In this document: one piece after another, positions 1-11,347 of the stretch
How the letters are laid out: every line of letters begins with the position of its first letter
How positions within the stretch are numbered: the stretch's first letter is position 1
Assembly (NCBI GenBank): GCA_040380025.1
Contig: JBEIJY010000042.1
Span: 1-11,347, forward strand
Length of the DNA: 11,347 bases
Direction of reading: 5' to 3'
DNA from: Bdellovibrionales bacterium
GTDB taxonomy: Bacteria > Bdellovibrionota > UBA1018 > CAIMNF01
Program-made: the position numbers and the translations under genes
Notes under the pieces: generated by a model
Database searches by the model: none
What the model saw: the letters and a program-made list of their open reading frames with translations, nothing else
Told to the model about the DNA's origin: nothing

Positions 1-181
1 GTGTTCCTGTTCTGTATGGTGTTTCGGGCATGGGGATGGGTAACATAAAGGTTTTGCCGACTCTCGCGAGCCAGGATGGCGAAAGCGAGGCCGGAGGACC
101 CGGCTCGGAGGCAAAACCTTTTTGTTTCCCAGCCCCTTTCCCAAACCACGGTACTGGGTCAAGAACACGCAAAGGGGGCAG
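1..181. repeat. Nested palindromic intergenic repeat, copy 1 (left end cut by window edge)
   Basis: Right arm 113-181 (aaaacctttttgtttcccagcccctttcccaaaccacggtac...caaagggggcag) matches 4537-4605 with 3 substitutions. Left arm 1-55 aligns to 4424-4478. Core 56-112 is shared with copies 2 and 3. Confidence 0.93.
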
Positions 182-198
182 ATCGCCAGTCACACCGG

Positions 199-227
199 TT
201 GCAAGCATCCCTTGAGTTCGATAACGT
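199..227 (+). promoter_or_regulatory. Putative sigma70 promoter of the thiolase gene (TTGCAA-N17-TAACGT), likely leaderless transcript
   Basis: TTGCAA at 199-204, 17-nt spacer, TAACGT at 222-227. ATG follows 7 nt later at 235 with no Shine-Dalgarno. Confidence 0.55.
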
Positions 228-234
228 CGAAACC

Positions 235-1416
235 ATGAGTAATGACGTCGTGGTGGCAGGATTTGCAAGGACTCCGTTTGGCAGTTTTCAGGGAGCGTTG
301 GCCTCTGTGCCCGCCCCGAAGCTCGGGGCGCACGCGATTCGCGAGGCGCTCGCGCGTGCCGGAGTGCGGCCGGATCAAGTGTCCGAGGTGATTTTCGGCA
401 ATGTTCTGACCGGAGGAGTCGGGCAGGCCCCGGCCCGTCAGGCCATGATTCATGCGGGCATTCCCGACTCGGTGCCGGCCCTGACGATCAACAAGGTTTG
501 TGGAAGCGGCATGAAAGCGATCATGCTCGGGGTTCAGTCGATCCGCACGGGCGAGAGCGAAATCGTCGTCGCGGGCGGGCAGGAGAGCATGTCGAACGCG
601 CCGTACCTGATGCCCGCCGCGCGGAACGGGTTCCGGATGGGGAACGCCCAGGTCATCGATGGCATGATCCACGACGGCCTTTGGGATCCGTACCAGAACC
701 GCCACATGGGGAACTTCGGTGAACTCTGCGCACGCGAGATCCACTTTACCCGCGAGGAGCAGGATGAGTTCGCGGCCGAAAGCTTCCGTCGCGCCATCGC
801 TGCACAGAACGAGAATTGCTTCGCATCCGAGATCGCGTCTTTTTCGGTGCCCGGCCAAAAAGGCGCCGCCGTCGTCATCGAGCACGACGAGGGTCCGTCG
901 AAAGTGAAATTCGACCGGATTCCGACCCTGAAGCCGGTGTTTGATCCGGCGGGAACGATCACCGCCGCAAACGCATCGACGATCAATGACGGAGCGGCGG
1001 CGCTGGTTCTTGCGCCCGCCGATCGCGTGGCGGCTCTGGGCTTGAAGCCCCTGGCACGAATCGTTTCGCAGGCAACCCATGCGCAGGAGCCCGCCTGGTT
1101 CACCACCGCGCCCGCGGGTGCCATGAAGAAAGCGCTCGAGAAGGCATCCTGGAGCGTGAAGGACGTGGACCTGTTCGAAGTGAACGAGGCGTTCGCCGTG
1201 GTGGCGATGGCCGCACAAAAAGAACTCGGAATCCCCCGCGAGAAATTGAATGTCTGGGGCGGGGCGATCAGCATCGGTCACCCGATCGGCGCATCCGGCG
1301 CCCGCATTGTGATGACGCTGATTTCTGCCCTTCGGGCCCGCGGAAAAAAACGGGGCCTTGCCGGAATCTGCATCGGCGGGGGCGAGGCCACCGCGATCGC
1401 GGTGGAGATCCTCTGA
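235..1416 (+). CDS. atoB: Acetyl-CoA C-acetyltransferase (thiolase), 393 aa
   Basis: Starts MSNDVVVAGFARTPFG. Contains the active-site motifs INKVCGSG, NEAF, GHPIGASG and CIGGG. The ORF-track extension from 76 runs through the repeat and is not thiolase-like. Confidence 0.95.
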   Translation: MSNDVVVAGFARTPFGSFQGALASVPAPKLGAHAIREALARAGVRPDQVSEVIFGNVLTGGVGQAPARQAMIHAGIPDSVPALTINKVCGSGMKAIMLGVQSIRTGESEIVVAGGQESMSNAPYLMPAARNGFRMGNAQVIDGMIHDGLWDPYQNRHMGNFGELCAREIHFTREEQDEFAAESFRRAIAAQNENCFASEIASFSVPGQKGAAVVIEHDEGPSKVKFDRIPTLKPVFDPAGTITAANASTINDGAAALVLAPADRVAALGLKPLARIVSQATHAQEPAWFTTAPAGAMKKALEKASWSVKDVDLFEVNEAFAVVAMAAQKELGIPREKLNVWGGAISIGHPIGASGARIVMTLISALRARGKKRGLAGICIGGGEATAIAVEIL

Positions 1417-2984
1417 ACATCAGATTCGGAATCGCGGTTTCGTTTTTGGTTTTGATTGTGCCGTTTGCGCTGGTTGCGCCCTCTGCTTCGGTCGAGGCAA
1501 AAACCCTGCACATGCACCTCGTCGATGCGCCGGCCGTGTTCGACTGGAACGGCGCTGTTGCGAATCCAGAGGCTCCGGTCGTACACCTGATCGGAGAAAG
1601 CTTGTACCGATTCCGGCCCGGCACCGGCAAACCCGTTCCGGCACTCGCCGAGTCCGTTCAAAAATCAAAAGACCTTCGGAAGTACACCTTCACCCTGCGA
1701 AAAGACGCGCGCTGGTCGGACGGGCGTCCGGTGGTCGCGCAAGATTTCGTCGATTCATGGATTCGCCTGCTCTCACCCCAGTCCGCATCATTGTACGCGT
1801 ATTACCTGTTCGACATCGAAGGTGCGCGTGAGTTTCACACGAAGCCCGGAGGCAACCCCTCGATGGTGGGAATTTCGGCCGAAGGGGAGCGCACTCTGGT
1901 GGTCAGGTTGCGGGAGCCGGTTCCGGATTGGGAACAGGTTCCCACGTTCTGGCCCACGTTTCCCGTCCGGAAGGACCTGATCGAGAAACTCGGGGAGCGG
2001 GCGTTCCGTCCCGGAGTTCTGCATTCGAGCGGCCCGTTCGTGCTCGAGAGCTTCGAGCCAGGGAAGAAGCTCGTTCTGCTGAAAAATCGGTTTTACTCGC
2101 GTGCAAAGACCAATCTCGACCGGATCGAGATCGATTTCGATCAGGATCTAGAGCGGGCGTATTCCCGCTACCGATCCGGTTTTTATCCGTTCTTGCAGTT
2201 TTTTCCCTGCGACAAGGTCGCGGGTCATGCAAAAAAAGGCGATCTCCTCCAGCCACCCCTGCATCGGAGCCATCTGCTGATCGCGAATGCAAAGAAGTAT
2301 CCGATGACGATCCGGGATTTTCGTGCGGCGATCATGATGGCGGTCAATCCGGTCGAGCTGAATCGCGGCTGTGAGGGGCGGTTTTCGCGCGCGAGCGGAA
2401 TGATCCCGCCGCCGCTTCCGGGAGCGACCGAAGAGGTGGTCGCGAAACCCGATCCGACCGAGGCCGCCCGGAGGCTCGAGCGATCGGGTGTGGTGGTCTC
2501 AACCAAGCTGAGGCTCCGGATCCTGACGCGATCGGGAGAGTCGTTCGAGAGCTTCGGCCGGAAGATCGAGGAGCAGCTCCGGAAGACGCTCGGTGTCGAG
2601 GTCGAGCTTCTGGCATTGAGTCCGGGAGAGTTCGGCGGCTTTGCCGGTTTGAGTGATTATGATCTGATTCTGTCATACTGGAACGCGAAGATCCCGAGTG
2701 CGCGGGATTTTTTGTTCCCCCACAGCGGGCAGGCAAAGAACAGCAGACTCCGGTTTGACAGCGCCATTTATGACGAGCTGGTCGACCGGCTCCGGATCAC
2801 CGGCGGAGGGAAGGCGGAGGCCGCAACGATCCGGAAGGCGCAGGAGGAATATGTGCGGAACGAGTTTGTGATCCTTCCTCTTGCGAACGAGAAGGCCACG
2901 GTCCTTCGGAGCCGGAAGATCCGCAATCTTTCGTTCCATTTCATGGGGTTTCCGCTCCTGGACGACGTGATCCTCGAGGACTGA
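1413..2984 (+). CDS. Peptide/nickel ABC transporter substrate-binding protein (SBP family 5, OppA/DppA-like)
   Basis: Family-5 signatures PALAES...YTFTLRKDARWSDGRPVVAQDFVDSW and SGPFVL, with an N-terminal signal peptide. First canonical start is TTG at 1446. An in-frame CTG at 1413 gives a complete signal peptide (see findings). Confidence 0.88.
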   Translation: MNIRFGIAVSFLVLIVPFALVAPSASVEAKTLHMHLVDAPAVFDWNGAVANPEAPVVHLIGESLYRFRPGTGKPVPALAESVQKSKDLRKYTFTLRKDARWSDGRPVVAQDFVDSWIRLLSPQSASLYAYYLFDIEGAREFHTKPGGNPSMVGISAEGERTLVVRLREPVPDWEQVPTFWPTFPVRKDLIEKLGERAFRPGVLHSSGPFVLESFEPGKKLVLLKNRFYSRAKTNLDRIEIDFDQDLERAYSRYRSGFYPFLQFFPCDKVAGHAKKGDLLQPPLHRSHLLIANAKKYPMTIRDFRAAIMMAVNPVELNRGCEGRFSRASGMIPPPLPGATEEVVAKPDPTEAARRLERSGVVVSTKLRLRILTRSGESFESFGRKIEEQLRKTLGVEVELLALSPGEFGGFAGLSDYDLILSYWNAKIPSARDFLFPHSGQAKNSRLRFDSAIYDELVDRLRITGGGKAEAATIRKAQEEYVRNEFVILPLANEKATVLRSRKIRNLSFHFMGFPLLDDVILED

Positions 2985-3024
2985 CCCGGTTTACAAACCC
3001 CCGCGACTGTGTGAGCGTATCGCC

Positions 3025-3741
3025 ATGAAACACGGCATGAACAAGGTGGTTTCGGGGCCCGACGAAGCGGTCCACGATATTTTTGACGGGGCGGTCCTGA
3101 CCATGGGCGGGTTCGGACTCTGCGGGATTCCCGAGAACAGCATCGCGGCGCTGGTCCGCAAGGGCGTGCGGAATCTGACCTGCGTCTCGAACAATGCCGG
3201 AGTCGACGGCTTCGGCATCGGGCTCATGCTCGAAAAGAAACAAGTGAAGAAAATGATCTCGAGCTATGTCGGCGAGAACAAGCTGTTCGAACAGCTGGTG
3301 CTTTCGAGCGAACTGGAGCTCGAATTCGCGCCGCAGGGAACGCTCGCCGAACGTCTGCGTGCGGGCGGGGCTGGAATTCCGGCGTTTTATACCCCGACCG
3401 GAGCGGGCACGCTGATCGCCGAAGGCAAGGAAGAGCGGGATTTCGGCGGAAGAAAATACATTCTCGAGAAAGGCATCGTCGGGGATTTCGGCATCGTGAA
3501 GGCCTGGAAGGGCGATGCGATGGGGAATCTGGTTTTTCGCAAGACCTCGCGCAATTTCAATCCGCTTTGCGCGATGGCCGGGAAGATCACGATCGTCGAG
3601 GTCGAGGAGCTCGTGCCCGTGGGGGCGATCGATCCGGACCAGGTGCACTTGCCGGGTGTGTACGTGCACCGGATTTTCCAGGGTCGGAACTACGAAAAAC
3701 GGATCGAGCGCCGCGTGCTTTCGTCGGGAGGTGCATCATGA
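3025..3741 (+). CDS. scoA: 3-oxoacid (succinyl-CoA:acetoacetate) CoA-transferase subunit A
   Basis: Motifs [43 protein letters not shown] and RNFNP. Alternative start ATG at 3037 (MNKV). Confidence 0.93.
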
Positions 3742-4394
3742 GTCTGAGTCGCGAACAGATCGCCATGCGGATCGCGCAAGAGCTTCGGGACGGGTACTAT
3801 GTGAATCTCGGCATCGGGATTCCCACCCTGGTCGCGAATTACATTCCGAAGGGCATCGAGGTGGTGCTCCAGAGCGAGAACGGGATTCTCGGGCTCGGAC
3901 CGTATCCGACCGAGGCGCAGGTGGATCCCGATTTGATCAATGCCGGAAAAGAAACTGTCACGGTGATTCCCGGAGCCGCGTTTTTTTCGAGTGCGGATTC
4001 GTTTGCGATGATCCGGGCCGGAAAAATCGATCTTACGGTGCTTGGCGCGATGGAGGTCGATCAGAACGGCGATCTTGCGAATTGGATGATCCCGGGAAAA
4101 CTCGTGAAGGGCATGGGCGGGGCGATGGATCTCGTGGCCGGCGCGAAGCGTGTGGTCGTGGCGATGCAGCATGTTTCGAAGGACGGAAAAAGCAAGGTGC
4201 TGAAGAAGTGTCAGCTTCCGCTCACCGGGCAAAAGTGCGTGAACCGGATTGTCTCGGAGCTCGCGGTGATCGACGTGACCCCGCAGGGCCTGCGGCTTGT
4301 GGAGCGCGCGCCCGGCGTGAGCGTCGAGCAGATCGTGAAATCGACCGAGGCGGAGCTGCTCATCGAGGGCGAAATTCCCGAGATGAAGCTTTGA
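3738..4394 (+). CDS. scoB: 3-oxoacid CoA-transferase subunit B, 218 aa
   Basis: Motifs [16 protein letters not shown] (catalytic Glu) and [13 protein letters not shown] overlap with the subunit A stop at 3738-3741. Confidence 0.94.
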
Positions 4395-4406
4395 TTGCAA
4401 ATTACC

Positions 4407-4609
4407 CAAACTGCCCCCTTTGAGTGTTCCTGATCAGTACGGTGTTTCGGGAAAGGGGCTGGGAAACAAAAAGGTTTTTTCCTCCGAGCCGGATCCTCCG
4501 GCCTCGCTCTCGCCATCGTGGCTCGCGAGAGTCGGCAAAACCTTTTTGTTTCCCAGCCCCTTTCCCAAACCACGGTACCGGGTCAAGCACACTCAAAGGG
4601 GGCAGTTTG
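4407..4609. repeat. Nested palindromic intergenic repeat, copy 2 (complete, 203 bp), between convergent genes
   Basis: Perfect 21-bp outer inverted repeat caaactgccccctttgagtgt (4407-4427 / 4589-4609), an imperfect middle stem, a perfect 30-bp inner inverted repeat gggaaaggggctgggaaacaaaaaggtttt (4449-4478 / 4537-4566), and a 58-nt core at 4479-4536. Confidence 0.96.
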
Positions 4610-4621
4610 CAGTTCGTATCC

Positions 4622-5566
4622 TCAAAGCGGCCAACGGTGTTGCACCGAGAGCGCGACACTCCGGCTCAGGCTCACATTCTGTGCCGGACCCATCAGGGTT
4701 TGGTCAGTGTAAGCGAGTCCGAGCGACCATTCATCACTGAGCATGTATCCCGCCTGAATCGAGGTATTCCAAGCGAGTTGAGGCTCCGAGACCGATCGAA
4801 TGTCGCCCGTGGTTTCCATGCTTCCCTCGAACACCGGCGACAGGCTCGCTCCGAACCGGAAGCTTCCGCCGCCCGGACTCCAGCCCGCACCCACTAGGGC
4901 GGTTCCCCCGAAGGAGGGCACGACCTCGAGATTCGCTCCGGCCTCGGTCACCACCGAGCGGGGGAGCGAGCGGTGCGCCTCGAAGGTCAGAATGAAATCA
5001 AAATCCGAGATCGCCTTCACGAAGACCATTCCGGCACCGATGGTCGTGAAACCCCGTCCCCGGGAATCAATCTGAAACGGCTCGATCGAATCGTAGGTGG
5101 AGGGTCCCGTGGGAAGGGTCACCTGCAAAAACGCAAAGCCCTTCGGACGGAAGCGGGAGTAGGTGTAGTCGGGCATCACCTCATAGGCGAAATCGAAAAG
5201 TACGTCTCCGGGGCCGGAGGCCGTGGTGTAGATCTCGGGAGTATCGATCGCGCGCGAGACGATCGGAATGCTCGCACCGATCTGTCCGCGGTCGAAAATG
5301 CGATAGGCGCCGGAGACATTGAGCACGCTCAGGGACTCATCGTCATCGGCCGCCCGGAAAACAGGAAGCCCCGTTGCGGGCGCATCACCGATGATCATCC
5401 CTCGCGAAACGCTTGCCTGGATCTGGGCCCGATCATCTCCGGTGATCAGGTTCGGAATTGCAGAGCCTCCGCCGCAACAGGGCGCGGCCCGGGCCGGTAA
5501 ACCATCGAAAAAACAAACAAGAAGAAATGCGAGGGCAAAAAAGACCCTAAATCTTGACGGGCACAA
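4622..5566 (-). CDS. Secreted hypothetical protein, putative outer-membrane beta-barrel/transporter with N-terminal CCGGG motif
   Basis: Signal peptide ending ARA followed by APCCGGG. Alternating amphipathic beta segments, a 'GPGD' segment and 'LPTG'. C-terminus SVALSVQHRWPL resembles a barrel beta-signal. Overlaps the upstream gene by 20 nt. Confidence 0.7.
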   Translation of the reverse strand: MCPSRFRVFFALAFLLVCFFDGLPARAAPCCGGGSAIPNLITGDDRAQIQASVSRGMIIGDAPATGLPVFRAADDDESLSVLNVSGAYRIFDRGQIGASIPIVSRAIDTPEIYTTASGPGDVLFDFAYEVMPDYTYSRFRPKGFAFLQVTLPTGPSTYDSIEPFQIDSRGRGFTTIGAGMVFVKAISDFDFILTFEAHRSLPRSVVTEAGANLEVVPSFGGTALVGAGWSPGGGSFRFGASLSPVFEGSMETTGDIRSVSEPQLAWNTSIQAGYMLSDEWSLGLAYTDQTLMGPAQNVSLSRSVALSVQHRWPL

Positions 5567-6068
5567 CTGCTTCTTCCACGACGGTACTGCCGTCCTTCAG
5601 CTGGACGTGGACCTCCCAAGGCCCCGGCATCACGAAAAAAACGTTCTTCGATTCGTACTGTCCGGGAAGTGCCGCTCCGTTCGCATCGGTCTTCGGAGTC
5701 AGGGTTACGGGCGAAGAACCGTGATTCATGCTTTTCATCCAAAGCAGAAGGAAAGGGATCTTAGGGGGTGTTGCGAAGGGACCGACGGGCGAGCCTCCGG
5801 TTTTTTTCCAGAACTTGAGCCCGACCGAGAGCAACTGATTCGCCCGGAGCGAGGATTTCCATTCGAGGCTCGCGCAAAATCCGGCTTTCGGGAAGTCGAT
5901 GGGGCAGGCGCCGGCATCGGCTTCGTTCTCTTCGGTTTCAAACTCCTCCGATGCCAGAACCTCTTCGGCGTTTTCGTGATGAAGAATGGGCGATGCGCCG
6001 CAAGCCGTCTGGAACAAAAATGCGATCATGATCAGGAAAAGGGGGGATTTTTGGTGCAAGAGGTTCAT
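5547..6068 (-). CDS. Lipoprotein with YtkA/FixH-like Ig-fold domain
   Basis: Lipobox-like FQTA-C, Met/His motif WMKSMNHGSSP, and the YtkA-type C-terminal pattern GQY...FVMPGPWEVHV. ATGA-coupled to the upstream redoxin. Confidence 0.72.
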   Translation of the reverse strand: MNLLHQKSPLFLIMIAFLFQTACGASPILHHENAEEVLASEEFETEENEADAGACPIDFPKAGFCASLEWKSSLRANQLLSVGLKFWKKTGGSPVGPFATPPKIPFLLLWMKSMNHGSSPVTLTPKTDANGAALPGQYESKNVFFVMPGPWEVHVQLKDGSTVVEEAVVPVKI

Positions 6069-6625
6069 GGGGTTTCCTTTCGTTTGATGATGCAGCCGAG
6101 TGTCCGGACCACCGAAGGATCGGGTTTTCGTCCTTCTTTGAGCGCGATCAGCGCGTCTTTCAGGTGGTGCCGTTCGGCCTTGGTTGCGGTGTGGCTGTCG
6201 TCCACCCCGCCTTGAAACACGATTTCTCCCCGCGGATCGAGCACAAACGCGTGGGGGGTTTTGTAGGCGCCGAGCTCATCGGCGAGTTTGGAGCCCGGAT
6301 CCCGCAAAACCGGGAAGGGGAGTTTTGCTGACTGAAAATGTGCTCGCACCAAAGATTCCGGTTCGTCGCCGTTTGAGTGAATCCCGAGGAACTGGAACCC
6401 CTGCCCCGAGAACTCGCGATACAGGTTCGCAAGCACGGGCTCGTGGCTCGCCGAGCACGGGCACTTGGCCGAAAGAAAGAGCAATACGGTACCCCGTTTG
6501 GCCGCCGAAGGTTTGATCGACACCCCTTCGCCGAGCGCGCCCTTGCCCGAAAACAAAGAGGGCACGGCAAAGGCTGTTCCGGCATGGACAAATGCAAAAA
6601 GAAGAAGAATCCGGGTCGCACTCAT
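6065..6625 (-). CDS. Secreted thioredoxin-fold redoxin (AhpC/TSA-like family), 186 aa
   Basis: Signal peptide (AFA), FLSAKCPCS active-site region, FLGIHSN, FPVLRD, TPHAFV, GGVDD and C-terminal GCII. ATG at 6625 is preferred over GTG at 6634. Confidence 0.85.
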   Translation of the reverse strand: MSATRILLLFAFVHAGTAFAVPSLFSGKGALGEGVSIKPSAAKRGTVLLFLSAKCPCSASHEPVLANLYREFSGQGFQFLGIHSNGDEPESLVRAHFQSAKLPFPVLRDPGSKLADELGAYKTPHAFVLDPRGEIVFQGGVDDSHTATKAERHHLKDALIALKEGRKPDPSVVRTLGCIIKRKETP

Positions 6626-6636
6626 GGAGAGCACCT

Positions 6637-6678
6637 GTGTTAACAGGTTTGACTGAATAAGTCAACTGATCGAGTCAG
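6637..6678 (-). promoter_or_regulatory. Putative promoter of the redoxin operon overlapped by a palindromic operator
   Basis: Minus strand reads TTGACT (6665-6660), N17, then TAACAC (6642-6637) preceded by TGn. Palindrome TTGACT-gaata-AGTCAA at 6649-6665, with a second degenerate site at 6662-6678. Confidence 0.55.
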
Positions 6679-6692
6679 CAAACAGAGCCAAT

Positions 6693-6885
6693 TGCCCCCT
6701 TTGATTGTGCTTGATTCAGGAGCGGGATGGGGAGAGGGGGTTGGAATCATTCTATTTTTGCCGACTCTCGCGAGCGCGTGACGCGCGAAAGCGAGGCCGC
6801 ACGACGCGGCTCGGAGGTAAAAATAGAATGATTCCAACCCCCTCTCCCCATCCCGCTCATTAAAAAAGCACAATCAAAGGGGGCA
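6693..6885. repeat. Nested palindromic intergenic repeat, copy 3 (complete, divergent arm type)
   Basis: Perfect 20-bp outer inverted repeat tgccccctttgattgtgctt (6693-6712 / 6866-6885), 7-nt unpaired spacers, a perfect 40-bp inner inverted repeat (6720-6759 / 6819-6858), and a 59-nt core at 6760-6818 homologous to the copy 1 core. Confidence 0.96.
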
Positions 6886-6895
6886 GTTTATCGTT

Positions 6896-8257: not shown

Positions 8258-8379
8258 CGGGGTTCTCGATTCGGTTCTAAGATGATTGGCAACAAACTAT
8301 GTTGAATTGACCTTGGTTTCAATCGGGATCATGGGGAAGAGCAGGGAATGGGCGGGCGCTCCCACTCCATTCCCCGCCC

Positions 8380-8408
8380 TTCCCAAGAGCATCCTCCTTG
8401 CGTACTAT
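8380..8408 (+). promoter_or_regulatory. Putative sigma70 promoter (TTCCCA-N17-TACTAT) directly abutting the GTG start, likely leaderless
   Basis: TTCCCA at 8380-8385, TACTAT at 8403-8408, and GTG at 8415 after a 6-nt gap. Confidence 0.5.
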
Positions 8409-8414
8409 CAGGGG

Positions 8415-9806
8415 GTGAGCGCATCTTTTCTTGAGCGATTAAAAGCAGAATTGGGCCCTGAGTCGGTTTCGACCGATCCAAACGACCTCAAAACCTTCGG
8501 ACGCGACTGGACCAAGTCCGTCGAGCCGGCCCCCCTTGCGGTGTGCTTTCCGCGCTCCACCGGGGAGGTCTCGCGGGTCATGGCCCTTTGCTCGTCCCAC
8601 CAGATCGCCGTCGTTCCCTCGGGCGGGCGCACGGGGCTTGCCGGCGGTGCGGTTGCGGCGCGGGGCGAGCTCGTGGTTTCGCTCTCAAAAATGCGCGCGA
8701 TGGGCGAGGTGGATCCCCTTGCGCTCACCGTGACGGTCGAGGCCGGAGCCGTGACCGAGGCCGTGCACGAGCACTGCAAGCCGCACGGGCTCACCTGGCC
8801 GGTTGATTTTGCCTCGAAGGGCTCCTCGACCGTGGGCGGAAATCTCGCCACCAACGCGGGCGGGGTGCGGGTGATTCGCTACGGGCTCACCCGGCAGTGG
8901 GTTCTCGGACTCACGGTGGTGCTCATGAATGGCGAGATCCTGAACCTGAACGGCTCGCTCGAAAAGAACAACACCGGCGTTGATCTCCGGCAGGTCTTCA
9001 TCGGGAGCGAGGGGATCTTGGGGATCATCACGGACGCAACGCTGAAACTCGCGCCTCTTCCCGCCGAGAGCGATGTATTTTTATTCGCGCTTCGGGATCT
9101 CTCGCAGGTTTTTGAGCTGTTCCGCGAGGTCCGGCAAAATCCCCTGATCGTGAACGCCTACGAGTGTTTCTCGGATTCCTGTCTGCAGGCGGTGCTCTCG
9201 CACCTCGGGCTTGCGAAGCCCTTCGAGAAGGCGCACGAGCAGTACGTCTTGCTCGAGGTCGAACGGCCCGCCGGAGGCGAGGGGCTTTCGGAGGAATGGC
9301 TCTCGTCGCTGTTCGAGCGTGGTGTGGTCGAGGACGCGGTCCTTGCCCAGAGTCCGGCCGAGGCCCGAAACCTATGGTCCATGCGCGAGGGGATCTCGGA
9401 GTCGCTCGCAAGCATGGGGCTCTTGCACAAGCACGACATCTCGCTTCCGATTCATCGGCTCAAGGAATTCATCGAGACCTGGTCGCGCGAGATGGCCCAG
9501 AATTACCCGGGGCTTTCGCCTTATCTTTTCGGGCACATCGGCGACGGGAACCTGCATGTGAATCTGCTGAAGCCCGAATCGATGGATGGGTCCGAGTTCA
9601 AGACTCTTTGTGCGAAAGCCGACTCCGCGATGTTCGGCTGGATCCGAAAATTCGAGGGATCCGTCTCGGCCGAGCACGGGATCGGGCTCCTGAAGCGTCA
9701 CCTGTTGCACTACTCGCGTTCGGACACCGAGATCGCGCTCATGCGGCAGATGAAGGCGGTGTTTGATCCGGCGGGGTTGTTGAATCCCGGGAAGGTCCTC
9801 CCCTAA
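8415..9806 (+). CDS. FAD-linked D-2-hydroxyacid dehydrogenase (VAO/PCMH family; D-2-hydroxyglutarate/D-lactate dehydrogenase-like), 463 aa
   Basis: Motifs GGRTGLAGGA, PVDFAS.GSS.VGGNLATNAGG..VIRYG, GSEGILGIIT, FGHIGDGNLH, SAEHGIG and DPAGLLNPGK. The GTG at 8415 fits the family N-terminus, whereas 8286-8414 looks non-coding. Confidence 0.9.
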   Translation: MSASFLERLKAELGPESVSTDPNDLKTFGRDWTKSVEPAPLAVCFPRSTGEVSRVMALCSSHQIAVVPSGGRTGLAGGAVAARGELVVSLSKMRAMGEVDPLALTVTVEAGAVTEAVHEHCKPHGLTWPVDFASKGSSTVGGNLATNAGGVRVIRYGLTRQWVLGLTVVLMNGEILNLNGSLEKNNTGVDLRQVFIGSEGILGIITDATLKLAPLPAESDVFLFALRDLSQVFELFREVRQNPLIVNAYECFSDSCLQAVLSHLGLAKPFEKAHEQYVLLEVERPAGGEGLSEEWLSSLFERGVVEDAVLAQSPAEARNLWSMREGISESLASMGLLHKHDISLPIHRLKEFIETWSREMAQNYPGLSPYLFGHIGDGNLHVNLLKPESMDGSEFKTLCAKADSAMFGWIRKFEGSVSAEHGIGLLKRHLLHYSRSDTEIALMRQMKAVFDPAGLLNPGKVLP

Positions 9807-9857
9807 CTGCCCCCTTTGATCGCGCTCGTTAGAAAATCACAATGAACGGGGGCAGTT
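9805..9857. repeat. Collapsed (ends-only) member of the palindromic repeat family between convergent stop codons; possible terminator role
   Basis: Perfect 10-bp inverted repeat aactgccccc/gggggcagtt. Both halves align to the ends of copy 3 (tgccccctttgat... and ...cacaat.aa.gggggca). Inner arms and core are absent. Confidence 0.85.
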
Positions 9858-11347
9858 CAGAGGGTCTTCAGGAACTCGATCAAATCCCGTTTTTGTTCAT
9901 CCGTATACCGCTCGCTCCCGTCGCGATTCGTGAAGATCCGCTCGTAGTGCCCGGCGTTCGACATCCCCGGGCGGCGGGCATCGTACAGGTGGTCGTCCTT
10001 GTCGATCACCTTCGACCAGTGGTCGGGGGTGGCGTCTCCGAGCGGGTACCCGACACAGTTCGAGTCGAAGTCGCGCTCGCGATCAAGCACTTCGCCCGAA
10101 CGATACGTCATCGGGCGCGCGGCTGGCGGGGTCATCAGGGCGCAAAGATTCGGAATCGAGTTGTTATGAAAATACGGAAACCGTGCCCAGATCCCCTCGA
10201 GCGGCGGCGCCACATAGCCCTTTTGTTCTTCGATCACGATTCCGAATCGCTTCGAGAACTCGAGCGGATTCAGCGCAACGGCGAGCGCCCGCATTCCGAA
10301 TCGCCGGCCCGAATCGGTGCCGACGTCATAGGTCCGGGTCTTCTCGAAATAGCGCACGCGGACCGTCTCGATCAGCGGGCGATCGGGCACCTCCATCGAC
10401 CAGGCCTTCTCGTAGGTGCCGTGGCAGTGGTTGCAGTTCGTATTGAAGATCGCCTCGCCCCGCTTTGCCCGCTCCACCGAAATCAACGAGGCATCGAGAT
10501 ACGCGCTCCACTTCGGAGCCTCGGTCGCAAACACCGCCGTGGTCAGCTCCTCGACGATCGATGACTGCGTCTGGAGCCACTCCACGAGTTCGGGCAAATC
10601 GACGCCGCGGCCGATCTCGTTCCACAAAAAATTCGTAAAGATCGGATTCCCCGAGATCACGCTCGCATCCGAGAGAAACCTTGTTTTGTATTTTACATTC
10701 CACCACACGGCGGGCTTGCTGTCGGGAATGAGATCATCCAACAGCGTCGCCCGCGGCTCGGACTCGAACCTGCGATCGCGTTCGGCCCATGGGGTGGGCG
10801 CCCGGCGGGCGAGCGAGAGCGCCACCTGCGCAAGCGAGGTGTCGAGGCCCAAGGTCTCGGGGCGCTTCAGTCCGATCGAACCCATGCGGGCGCGCGAGTC
10901 GGCGTACATGGTTTTCTCGGCGCGGGTCGCGCCGGTCAGGAGCGCGAAAACCCCGGGATGGATTTTTTGAAGAGCCGATTGCCCGTGGATGAAAAACAAG
11001 TTCGCGCGCGGGAACCGATTCGTGAGTCCCAGAATCGGTCTTCCGAACAGTTGCGAAGAGTGGCAGGCGGCACAGCTCAGGGTGAACCCCGGCGCGCCGT
11101 TCCGGTTCAGGATCGAAACCCCCATCGGGTACTTCGGCCGGAGCCCGTCCCGAAACGGAATCTCTCCCTCATTGGCCGGATACTCATGGAGCCCGAGCCA
11201 TTTCCAGAAGCCCCGAAAGTCCTCAAAATCAGGACTGATCGACAAAACCCCGCGCAGGAACCGGAACAAAAGATCGCCGGGCTTGGCATCGAGGGCCTTC
11301 AAGGCCGGGCGGGCCGGAATCAAGAGGCCCGTTCCCTCGATCGGGTA
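9857..11347 (-). CDS. Dihaem c-type cytochrome of the RoxA (rubber oxygenase)/MauG/bCcP superfamily; 5' end lies outside the window
   Basis: Two CxxCH motifs (CAACH at 11060-11074 and CNHCH at 10421-10435). Also YVAPPLEGIWARFPYFHNNSIPNL and C-terminal YDARRPGMSNAGH...LIEFLKTL, typical of RoxA-like proteins. The frame is open to position 11347. Confidence 0.85.
   Translation of the reverse strand, partial: YPIEGTGLLIPARPALKALDAKPGDLLFRFLRGVLSISPDFEDFRGFWKWLGLHEYPANEGEIPFRDGLRPKYPMGVSILNRNGAPGFTLSCAACHSSQLFGRPILGLTNRFPRANLFFIHGQSALQKIHPGVFALLTGATRAEKTMYADSRARMGSIGLKRPETLGLDTSLAQVALSLARRAPTPWAERDRRFESEPRATLLDDLIPDSKPAVWWNVKYKTRFLSDASVISGNPIFTNFLWNEIGRGVDLPELVEWLQTQSSIVEELTTAVFATEAPKWSAYLDASLISVERAKRGEAIFNTNCNHCHGTYEKAWSMEVPDRPLIETVRVRYFEKTRTYDVGTDSGRRFGMRALAVALNPLEFSKRFGIVIEEQKGYVAPPLEGIWARFPYFHNNSIPNLCALMTPPAARPMTYRSGEVLDRERDFDSNCVGYPLGDATPDHWSKVIDKDDHLYDARRPGMSNAGHYERIFTNRDGSERYTDEQKRDLIEFLKTL

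Follow-up and report, generated by a model that had tools for sequence, protein, structure and literature searches.

How can the centre of a repeat element come to lie reversed between arms that have kept their own order? The question is raised by a family of palindromic hairpin elements in contig JBEIJY010000042.1 of the Bdellovibrionales bacterium assembly GCA_040380025.1, the whole of which (contig C42, 11,347 nt) was analysed and is called the window here. The genome holding the window (G000, a 2.35-Mb assembly in 53 contigs) was compared with three relatives, G002 (8 contigs), G010 and G013, and with G054, a genome of another family. Four members of the repeat family, copies 1, 2 and 3 and the coreless copy 4, lie in the window alongside metabolic genes. 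From the outside to the centre, an element consists of terminal repeat, asymmetric spacer, inner repeat and core, and it folds into a branched hairpin (z -15 and -19 versus shuffles). In G000, where one false core match (C5-80977) is excluded from the counts, the core motif has 80 matches and the elements are intergenic; 40 have paired ends and most of these measure 199-204 bp. We consider it probable that the element is a miniature inverted-repeat transposable element (MITE) moved by the transposase of an IS1-like insertion sequence (IS), and that its core occasionally flips in place through replication template switching between the inner repeats.

The reversal in copy 2, first proposed in a preliminary description of this DNA, was confirmed: positions 56-112 of copy 1 are the reverse complement of 4480-4536, with the three substitutions reported for the first 56 nt (74, 83 and 99) and a fourth at the last base. 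Only the start of the copy 2 core, formerly placed at 4479, had to be shifted, as 4479 is one extra T and the true start is 4480. Compared with five other complete copies of its subfamily, copy 2 scored 86-94 with its arms in the same order and 96-116 with its arms swapped (margin 18-28 versus four siblings and 2 versus one; seven of 55 elements with poorly matching arms were omitted from this test). All 14 edges of the comparison graph agree on its orientation, and when copy 2 is written core-forward, a right-type arm stands on the left. The swapped-arm scores and the graph edges thus bear out the earlier statement that inversion of the whole element does not explain copy 2. The 4T/5T asymmetry at the core junctions moved together with the core, which places the exchange inside the perfect inner repeat (4449-4478/4537-4566).

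The accompanying claim that copies 1 and 2 carry their arms in the same orientation held in part. Bases 1-55 of copy 1, its left arm, are an unreliable contig end: they differ from copy 2 at 8 of 55 nt, 11 of the first 46 nt disagree with the start of contig C12, and a similar end decay is seen in the overlap of contigs C47 and C39 (6 differences in 120). Since degP lies divergent from the thiolase gene in all three relatives, C12 is the true left side of copy 1. C12 confirms the orientation of the copy 1 core and its outer spacer is left-type, as claimed, whereas two inner marker bases are right-type.

Whether the orientation of copy 2 might be an assembly artefact, with flips being real elsewhere, has to be weighed at this point. 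In G000, 36 of 106 contig ends lie inside cores, contig ends within elements carry errors, and left and right arms are mismatched, i.e. unrelated, in 4 of 55 elements. Copy 2 lacks a target duplication, and its right flank finds no support in the gene order of the relatives, which was not conserved in the three stretches fetched. Exact contigs of sequencing run X1, possibly the source of the assembly, span only 134-4438 and 4580-6722 and leave the core of copy 2 without a bridge; runs X2-X4 gave scattered pieces of the window only. Against an artefact, neighbouring contigs overlap by 141 bp, which suggests long assembly words, no 59-mer across copy 2 occurs a second time in the assembly, and sequencing depth is about 34 on either side. 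Furthermore, a mis-join through the core predicts left arm, forward core and right arm, not a reversed core. We regard an artefact at copy 2 as rather improbable. The elements with unrelated arms (n=4) were noted at G000:C1 near 133328 and 189155 and in C4, C15 and C22; on C1 one left flank is found at two places, which points to a mis-join or to inversion through the core.

Flips were also found outside the window. Locus L249 of G010 and locus L236 of G013 are one orthologous locus, in which the flanks and both arms are shared and the core is inverted. The perfect repeat beside this core measures only 6-9 bp, too short to confuse an assembler, so that assembly error cannot explain the phenomenon; the mis-assembly named in the preliminary description as a threat to its claim is thereby set aside for core flipping as such, but not for the unbridged core of copy 2. 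A second reversed pair, L242/L221, rests on one arm and one flank. At the orthologous sites with both flanks (n=8; one spurious match, L098 on the minus strand, and tandem-array pairs were left out), six pairs have the same orientation and two are reversed. L098/L244 was rejected as a clean flip, its arms being unrelated and whole-element inversion or replacement being possible, and only L249/L236 was counted as clean. Within G002, L074 is swapped versus L069, L261 and L268, and L266 is swapped versus five clear siblings.

The orientation of the core is passed on along with the copies. In a tree of 28 G000 copies with the arms put in type order, orientation changes four times compared to a shuffled mean of 7.9, and seven flipped copies form one clade with one unflipped copy inside; the markers are weak in two of the seven flipped copies and in the lone copy C20+5577. 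Orientation splits in seven groups were 6:1, 7:1, 13:1, 3:1, 6:1, 3:0 and 15:1 (53:6 in total; 4 of the 20 copies fetched from G054 were unscorable or homogenised). The 13:1 and 15:1 splits depart individually from 50:50 (p 0.002 and 0.0005), and the pooled p of 2e-10 overstates the case because the majority was defined afterwards and the copies are kin. The roughly equal isomers predicted earlier across copies were therefore not seen, neither in the 53:6 tally within groups nor in the four changes among 28 copies. Flips are rare, inherited and possible at a site that did not move. With a flip at the stationary orthologous site L249/L236, flipping is not tied to propagation.

What moves the element was addressed through its ends. 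The elements are short, multicopy and non-coding and have terminal inverted repeats, as expected for MITEs. An IS1-like insertion sequence, which is multicopy in G000 and broken across contigs, has left ends at C5, C23 and C40 and right ends at C46, C38 and C20 that start like the element. In G002, G010 and G013 the ends of several IS copies are those genomes' own MITE ends, which differ from the ones in G000; element ends and IS ends thus change together between G000 and the three relatives. This match of ends suggests that the elements are likely MITEs moved by the transposase of this IS. Nine-bp direct repeats flank 8 of the 40 paired G000 elements at 7 or more of 9 matching bases, three of them exactly (shuffled mean 0.48, p 5e-5), in a register (9 bp, offset 2) that was picked after scanning 54 combinations. 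At one element with an exact duplication, the site is empty in three relatives, which have one similar sequence there. Gaps between convergent genes are over-represented among element sites (17 of 44 versus 104 of 1011 gaps, simple gene calls). Two elements, G000:C12:40883-41083 and 41569-41769, were seen in frame within a long open reading frame (ORF; own gene calls), to which they add peptide stretches and whose product resembles the tRNA-modification enzyme MnmC.

Of 17 genomes of the genus, 10 encode the transposase, among them all four that are rich in elements. Its best family match is the NCBIfam IS1 model with 37.5 and 41.7 bits, below the cut-off of 100, and it is hence called IS1-like only; the family comprises 485 representatives at E 1e-30 or better and 2005 at E 0.001 or better. 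The predicted model (predicted local distance difference test score 93) has DDE transposases and integrases as top fold matches, the best being ISCth4 (Z 13.8, root-mean-square deviation 8.0, 252 aligned). In 99 sequences the zinc-finger cysteines C50 and C53 as well as D134 and D213 are invariant. The protein is modelled as a DDE-fold enzyme with predicted activity, and the candidates for its third catalytic position are N259 and E246, Asn being the more probable. In the family of the gene at L136:1592-2512 (-) an Asn stands at the helix position expected for the third catalytic Glu (alignment A3; 98 of 99 sequences). Each of the intact transposase genes at C5:100088-101011 and C12:43978-44901 has a whole hairpin element on either side, and its stop codon falls within an element terminal repeat. 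In the bracketed stretches, G000:C5:99901-101245 (L136) and G000:C12:43756-45072 (L137), complete elements replace simple ends. The layout resembles that of RAYT genes flanked by REPINs, the enzyme encoded here being of DDE fold. None of the transposase loci fetched from relatives (n=27) has a core within 300 nt. IS copies were observed at orthologous sites of different species (L164 of G010 and L170 of G002; L148/L157; L158/L165), often directly after a stop codon, from which we infer that many are old and vertically inherited. As other candidate mobilisers, the IS256 and DDE_Tnp_1 families were discarded (0 of 4 genomes each). GIY-YIG was likewise rejected as a partner: one such gene adjoins a G000 element, but all 17 genomes have the family, and in G002 the gene has no listed element nearby.

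How the core flips was approached through the arms of 48 copies. Over the inner 30 nt, the arms of one copy have an identity of 0.90 and those of different copies one of 0.53; between copies the cores are 0.86 and the arms 0.40-0.60 identical; some copies have both arms fully overwritten and others have hybrid arms. Statements on published work refer here and below to the available parts of the cited papers. Template switching is reported to invert hairpin loops in place by an interstrand route and to perfect inverted repeats and stems (PMC8794818; 10.1101/2021.11.26.470150), and a single process would therefore give both the matching of arms and the flips. The IS1-like transposase would mobilise the element, and a replication fork pausing at the hairpin would copy the core from the other strand and return, leaving the core inverted. 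The same switching would overwrite one arm with the other, so that arms match within a copy and diverge between copies, and a flipped copy would hand its orientation on at the next transposition. Template switching between inverted repeats, mentioned in the preliminary description as an alternative, is the best fit to the arm matching and the in-place flip at L249/L236. The short exchange zone at this locus fits template switching better than homologous recombination.

Several observations weigh against a MITE with a template-switched core. The third acidic residue of the transposase is uncertain, the helix position holding N259 in 98 of 99 sequences and E246, the other candidate, being present in 87 of 99. 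Target duplications are absent at copy 2 (3 of 9 bases), copy 3 (1 of 9) and most copies; among 24 elements of G002, G010 and G013 a single one matches at 7 of 9 bases (p 0.12), and near-exact duplications (at most one mismatch) flank 0 of 21 paired IS copies of the relatives, the best reaching 7 of 9. Adjacent deletions are known for IS1; together with age they could account for the missing duplications; the IS copies look old. The 53:6 tally sets the majority after the fact and counts related copies. IS-type ends occur in 0 of 19 G054 cores, and cores are also found behind tRNA genes. Finally, the switching step is deduced from its footprint, and recombination or conversion would leave a similar one. 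Recombination would turn the core of the same MITE either by crossover in the inner repeats or by gene conversion, the core entering either way via the symmetric inner arms. The mixing of core sequence types across arm subfamilies and the 30 bp of perfect repeat in copy 2 speak for it, and the 4 of 55 elements with unrelated arms could be real recombinants, although they may also be mis-joins. At L249/L236, however, the exchange points lie within 6-9 bp of repeat, which is short for RecA-type recombination, and both cores are the same local variant and not foreign. Recombination appears unlikely to us as the cause of the flips.

We give very little credence to an enzyme-driven invertible switch, in which a recombinase or transposase would cut near the foot of the core and toggle the strand with the GGA loops. 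A point 5-6 bp outside the core can fall within the breakpoint window of copy 2 and also within that of L249/L236, the core structure is conserved with compensatory changes, and CsrA is encoded in 17 of 17 genomes of the genus. Yet the inner-arm sequences of flipped copies differ widely, unlike a recombinase site, many loops lack GGA, and core strand shows no preference relative to neighbouring gene ends (25 sense versus 34 antisense, p 0.30). A search for serine resolvases gave no match in G000, G002 and G010 and one in G013. The small invertible switch suggested earlier is thus not supported, orientation being inherited within subfamilies and flips being few. A wider scenario combines such switching with an autonomous core: an independent structured module of this Bdellovibrionota order would build its arms from flanks (tRNA tails, IS ends), would have hijacked a D-D-N IS1-like transposase and would act as a slow switch moving two CsrA-type GGA hairpins between convergent transcripts. 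We hold this scenario to be very unlikely.

The preliminary description had favoured propagation through a hairpin intermediate resolved by an HUH nickase, with flip and flop isomers as in parvovirus ends. The branched hairpin would suit it, and an element lies directly after each of two Y1-like genes (L001:1336-1938 (+), G000:C25:18392-18895 (-); one Y1_Tnp match and its paralogue). Neither Y1-like protein, however, has the HUH motif or the catalytic Tyr, which are retained by some orthologues, and the genes were rejected as mobiliser; in G002, G010 and G013 no core lies close to the orthologous genes, and among the 21 Y1-like family loci listed a core is near only at the C25 locus of G000. 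The C25 element has an exact 9-bp target duplication and looks like an ordinary insertion, and the enrichment of elements between convergent genes makes their adjacency to Y1-like genes less surprising. Of the 16 other genomes of the genus, 12 were noted to have Y1-like orthologues, and many of these lack HUH; the two G000 genes are intact and have similar upstream sequence. They are possibly domesticated for another job. A Y2 transposase search found 0 of 4 genomes with a match, its control being likewise silent. HUH transposition is not known to leave a target duplication, and flip and flop isomers of parvovirus ends are equal. REPINs, which are moved by the Y1 HUH enzyme RAYT, are also long extragenic hairpins enriched between convergent genes and bracketing transposase genes, like the elements here. 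In contrast to REPIN/RAYT systems and parvovirus ends, the bracketed enzyme is of DDE fold, some elements have target duplications, an intact HUH protein was not found, and the isomers are unequal, far from 50:50. Rolling-hairpin propagation is contradicted by ends shared with a DDE-fold IS, by 9-bp duplications at 8 of 40 elements, by Y1-like genes without HUH and by inherited orientation, and is scarcely credible.

The core itself probably predates the MITE and became enclosed by IS ends in this lineage. Its structure of two hairpins on a basal stem pairs 94.8% of cells, and 16 of 24 pairs show double (compensatory) changes (0 of 500 shuffles), the model being drawn from the same sequences on which it was scored. 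This model matches 18 of 116 genomes of the order, and at E 1e-5 over 151 genomes sampled from the phylum it has no match outside the genus; exact core-pattern matches elsewhere amount to 26 stretches, all in metagenome-assembled genomes of Bdellovibrionales. Single cores lie just behind tRNA-Pro or tRNA-Ser genes (L007, L008, L009, L014 and L077), in the same orientation in 5 of 5 cases, and at L009 and L077 the tRNA 3' end recurs, inverted, at the tip of the far arm. Since cores lacking IS ends exist, the IS accounts for at most part of the history of the core. In G054 (L191-L210) at least 30 core copies were observed; their nested arms are longer, two asymmetric spacer motifs are conserved in them, and IS-type ends are missing. 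Longer cores with extra hairpins between the usual two were seen in G000:C40 near 2460-2550 and 12700-12790. Core loops include AGGAT, AGGAC, GTGAC and ACGAC, and many are without GGA. An Rfam scan of the window returned sub-threshold miRNA-precursor matches only, reflecting the long hairpins; RF01731 (TwoAYGGAY) had no match in the window and a single sub-threshold one in the rest of the genome, away from the listed elements. Our best guess, held with low confidence, is that the core serves as a single-stranded structure recognised at the DNA level.

The coordinates of the copies and of their neighbours are collected in Table 1. Two further observations in the window concern a short imperfect hairpin at 8331-8390 upstream of a FAD-oxidase gene, which is unrelated to the repeat family and has a weak miRNA-like Rfam match, and a RoxA-like cytochrome c protein encoded at 9857-11347 (-), which runs on into contig C48 (141-bp overlap).

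Table 1. Hairpin elements and adjacent genes in the window.
Feature	Position	Strand	Remark
Copy 1, palindromic, truncated by contig start	1..185		Bases 1-55, at the contig end, are rich in errors
Copy 1 core, basal stem and two hairpins with loops AGGAT and AGGAC	56..112	+	Start of contig C12 has same orientation
Copy 1 right arm, right-type spacer and IS-type end	113..185		Exact X1 contig covers 134-185
Thiolase gene	235..1416	+	Downstream of copy 1
CoA-transferase subunit B gene	3738..4394	+	Stops just before copy 2
Copy 2, complete, 203 bp, between convergent genes	4407..4609		No target duplication, 3/9 bases match
Copy 2 left terminal repeat	4407..4428	+	Matches the IS1-like IS ends in type
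Copy 2 left-type asymmetric spacer	4429..4448	+	Marks orientation
Copy 2 left inner inverted repeat, perfect 30 bp	4449..4478	+	Putative switch zone
Copy 2 core, reversed versus own arms	4480..4536	-	4T/5T junction asymmetry travels along
Copy 2 right inner inverted repeat	4537..4566	-	
Copy 2 right-type spacer and right terminal repeat	4567..4609	-	
ORF without Pfam match	4622..5566	-	Ends just after copy 2
Copy 3, complete, other subfamily	6688..6890		Core 6760-6818 on +, majority orientation, loops without GGA
Copy 4, coreless 57-bp derivative (two ends only)	9803..9859		Between convergent genes

Hairpin MITEs and the inversion of a centre by template switching are each already known, the former from the available text of PMC10969869. 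The prokaryotic MITEs treated there (Correia/CREE, QMITE2, ERIC and RUP; QMITE2 is about 190 bp with 7-9 bp repeats) are likewise short, non-coding and intergenic, share terminal repeats with an IS, form stem-loops and have target duplications that fade with age. The element described here differs from them in being palindromic over its full length with nested repeats, and conservation is highest in its centre, whose orientation changes relative to the arms; in the accessible sections of PMC10969869 inversion is mentioned for the Correia element and not for a core within fixed arms. Template switching at quasi-palindromes (Ripley model; PMC8794818, 10.1101/2021.11.26.470150) also inverts a centre in place and perfects stems by arm copying. 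The rRNA loop inversions in the portions seen of that literature measure 4-8 nt, compared to a branched core of 57-59 nt that was inverted repeatedly in a multicopy bacterial element.

The partner IS shares zinc-finger cysteines, a predicted helical region and an RNase H/DDE-type fold with the IS1 family (PMC12428005) and its neighbour family IS1595 (PMC8101967), as far as the available text goes. IS1 makes 8-9 bp target duplications (PMC12428005), and those seen at some of the elements measure 9 bp. It differs from the IS1 family by its single ORF of about 307 aa, its sub-cut-off NCBIfam IS1 score and a third catalytic position that is probably Asn. IS1 ends begin with GG. Those of the partner IS begin with CAAACTG and not with GG, which the comparison in the consulted parts of PMC12428005 and PMC8101967 gives for Merlin. 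The core is similar to TwoAYGGAY (RF01731), which in the available parts of its descriptions also has two hairpins on a common basal stem, loops ending in GAY, a long extended stem, strongly varying copy number and a proposed CsrA binding (10.64898/2026.09.22.753630, PMC4333381, PMC2864571). In contrast to TwoAYGGAY, the core here has no RF01731 match and loops of mostly 5 nt, does not carry AYGGAY in both loops, often has no GGA, is confined to one order of Bdellovibrionota and is bounded by IS ends. A literature search, in which subscription journals were poorly covered, found neither this element nor the inversion of a core within a bacterial MITE described.

The hairpins account for about one third of the contig breaks in G000, and the exotic HUH reading gives way to a testable one. 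The element apparently is an undescribed MITE tied to an IS1-like transposase family, with a conserved structured core beside it. The record of flips and arm overwriting in dozens of arm-marked copies from several genomes may serve as a natural reporter, so that genomes could be used to measure how often template switching occurs at bacterial hairpins and over what tract length.

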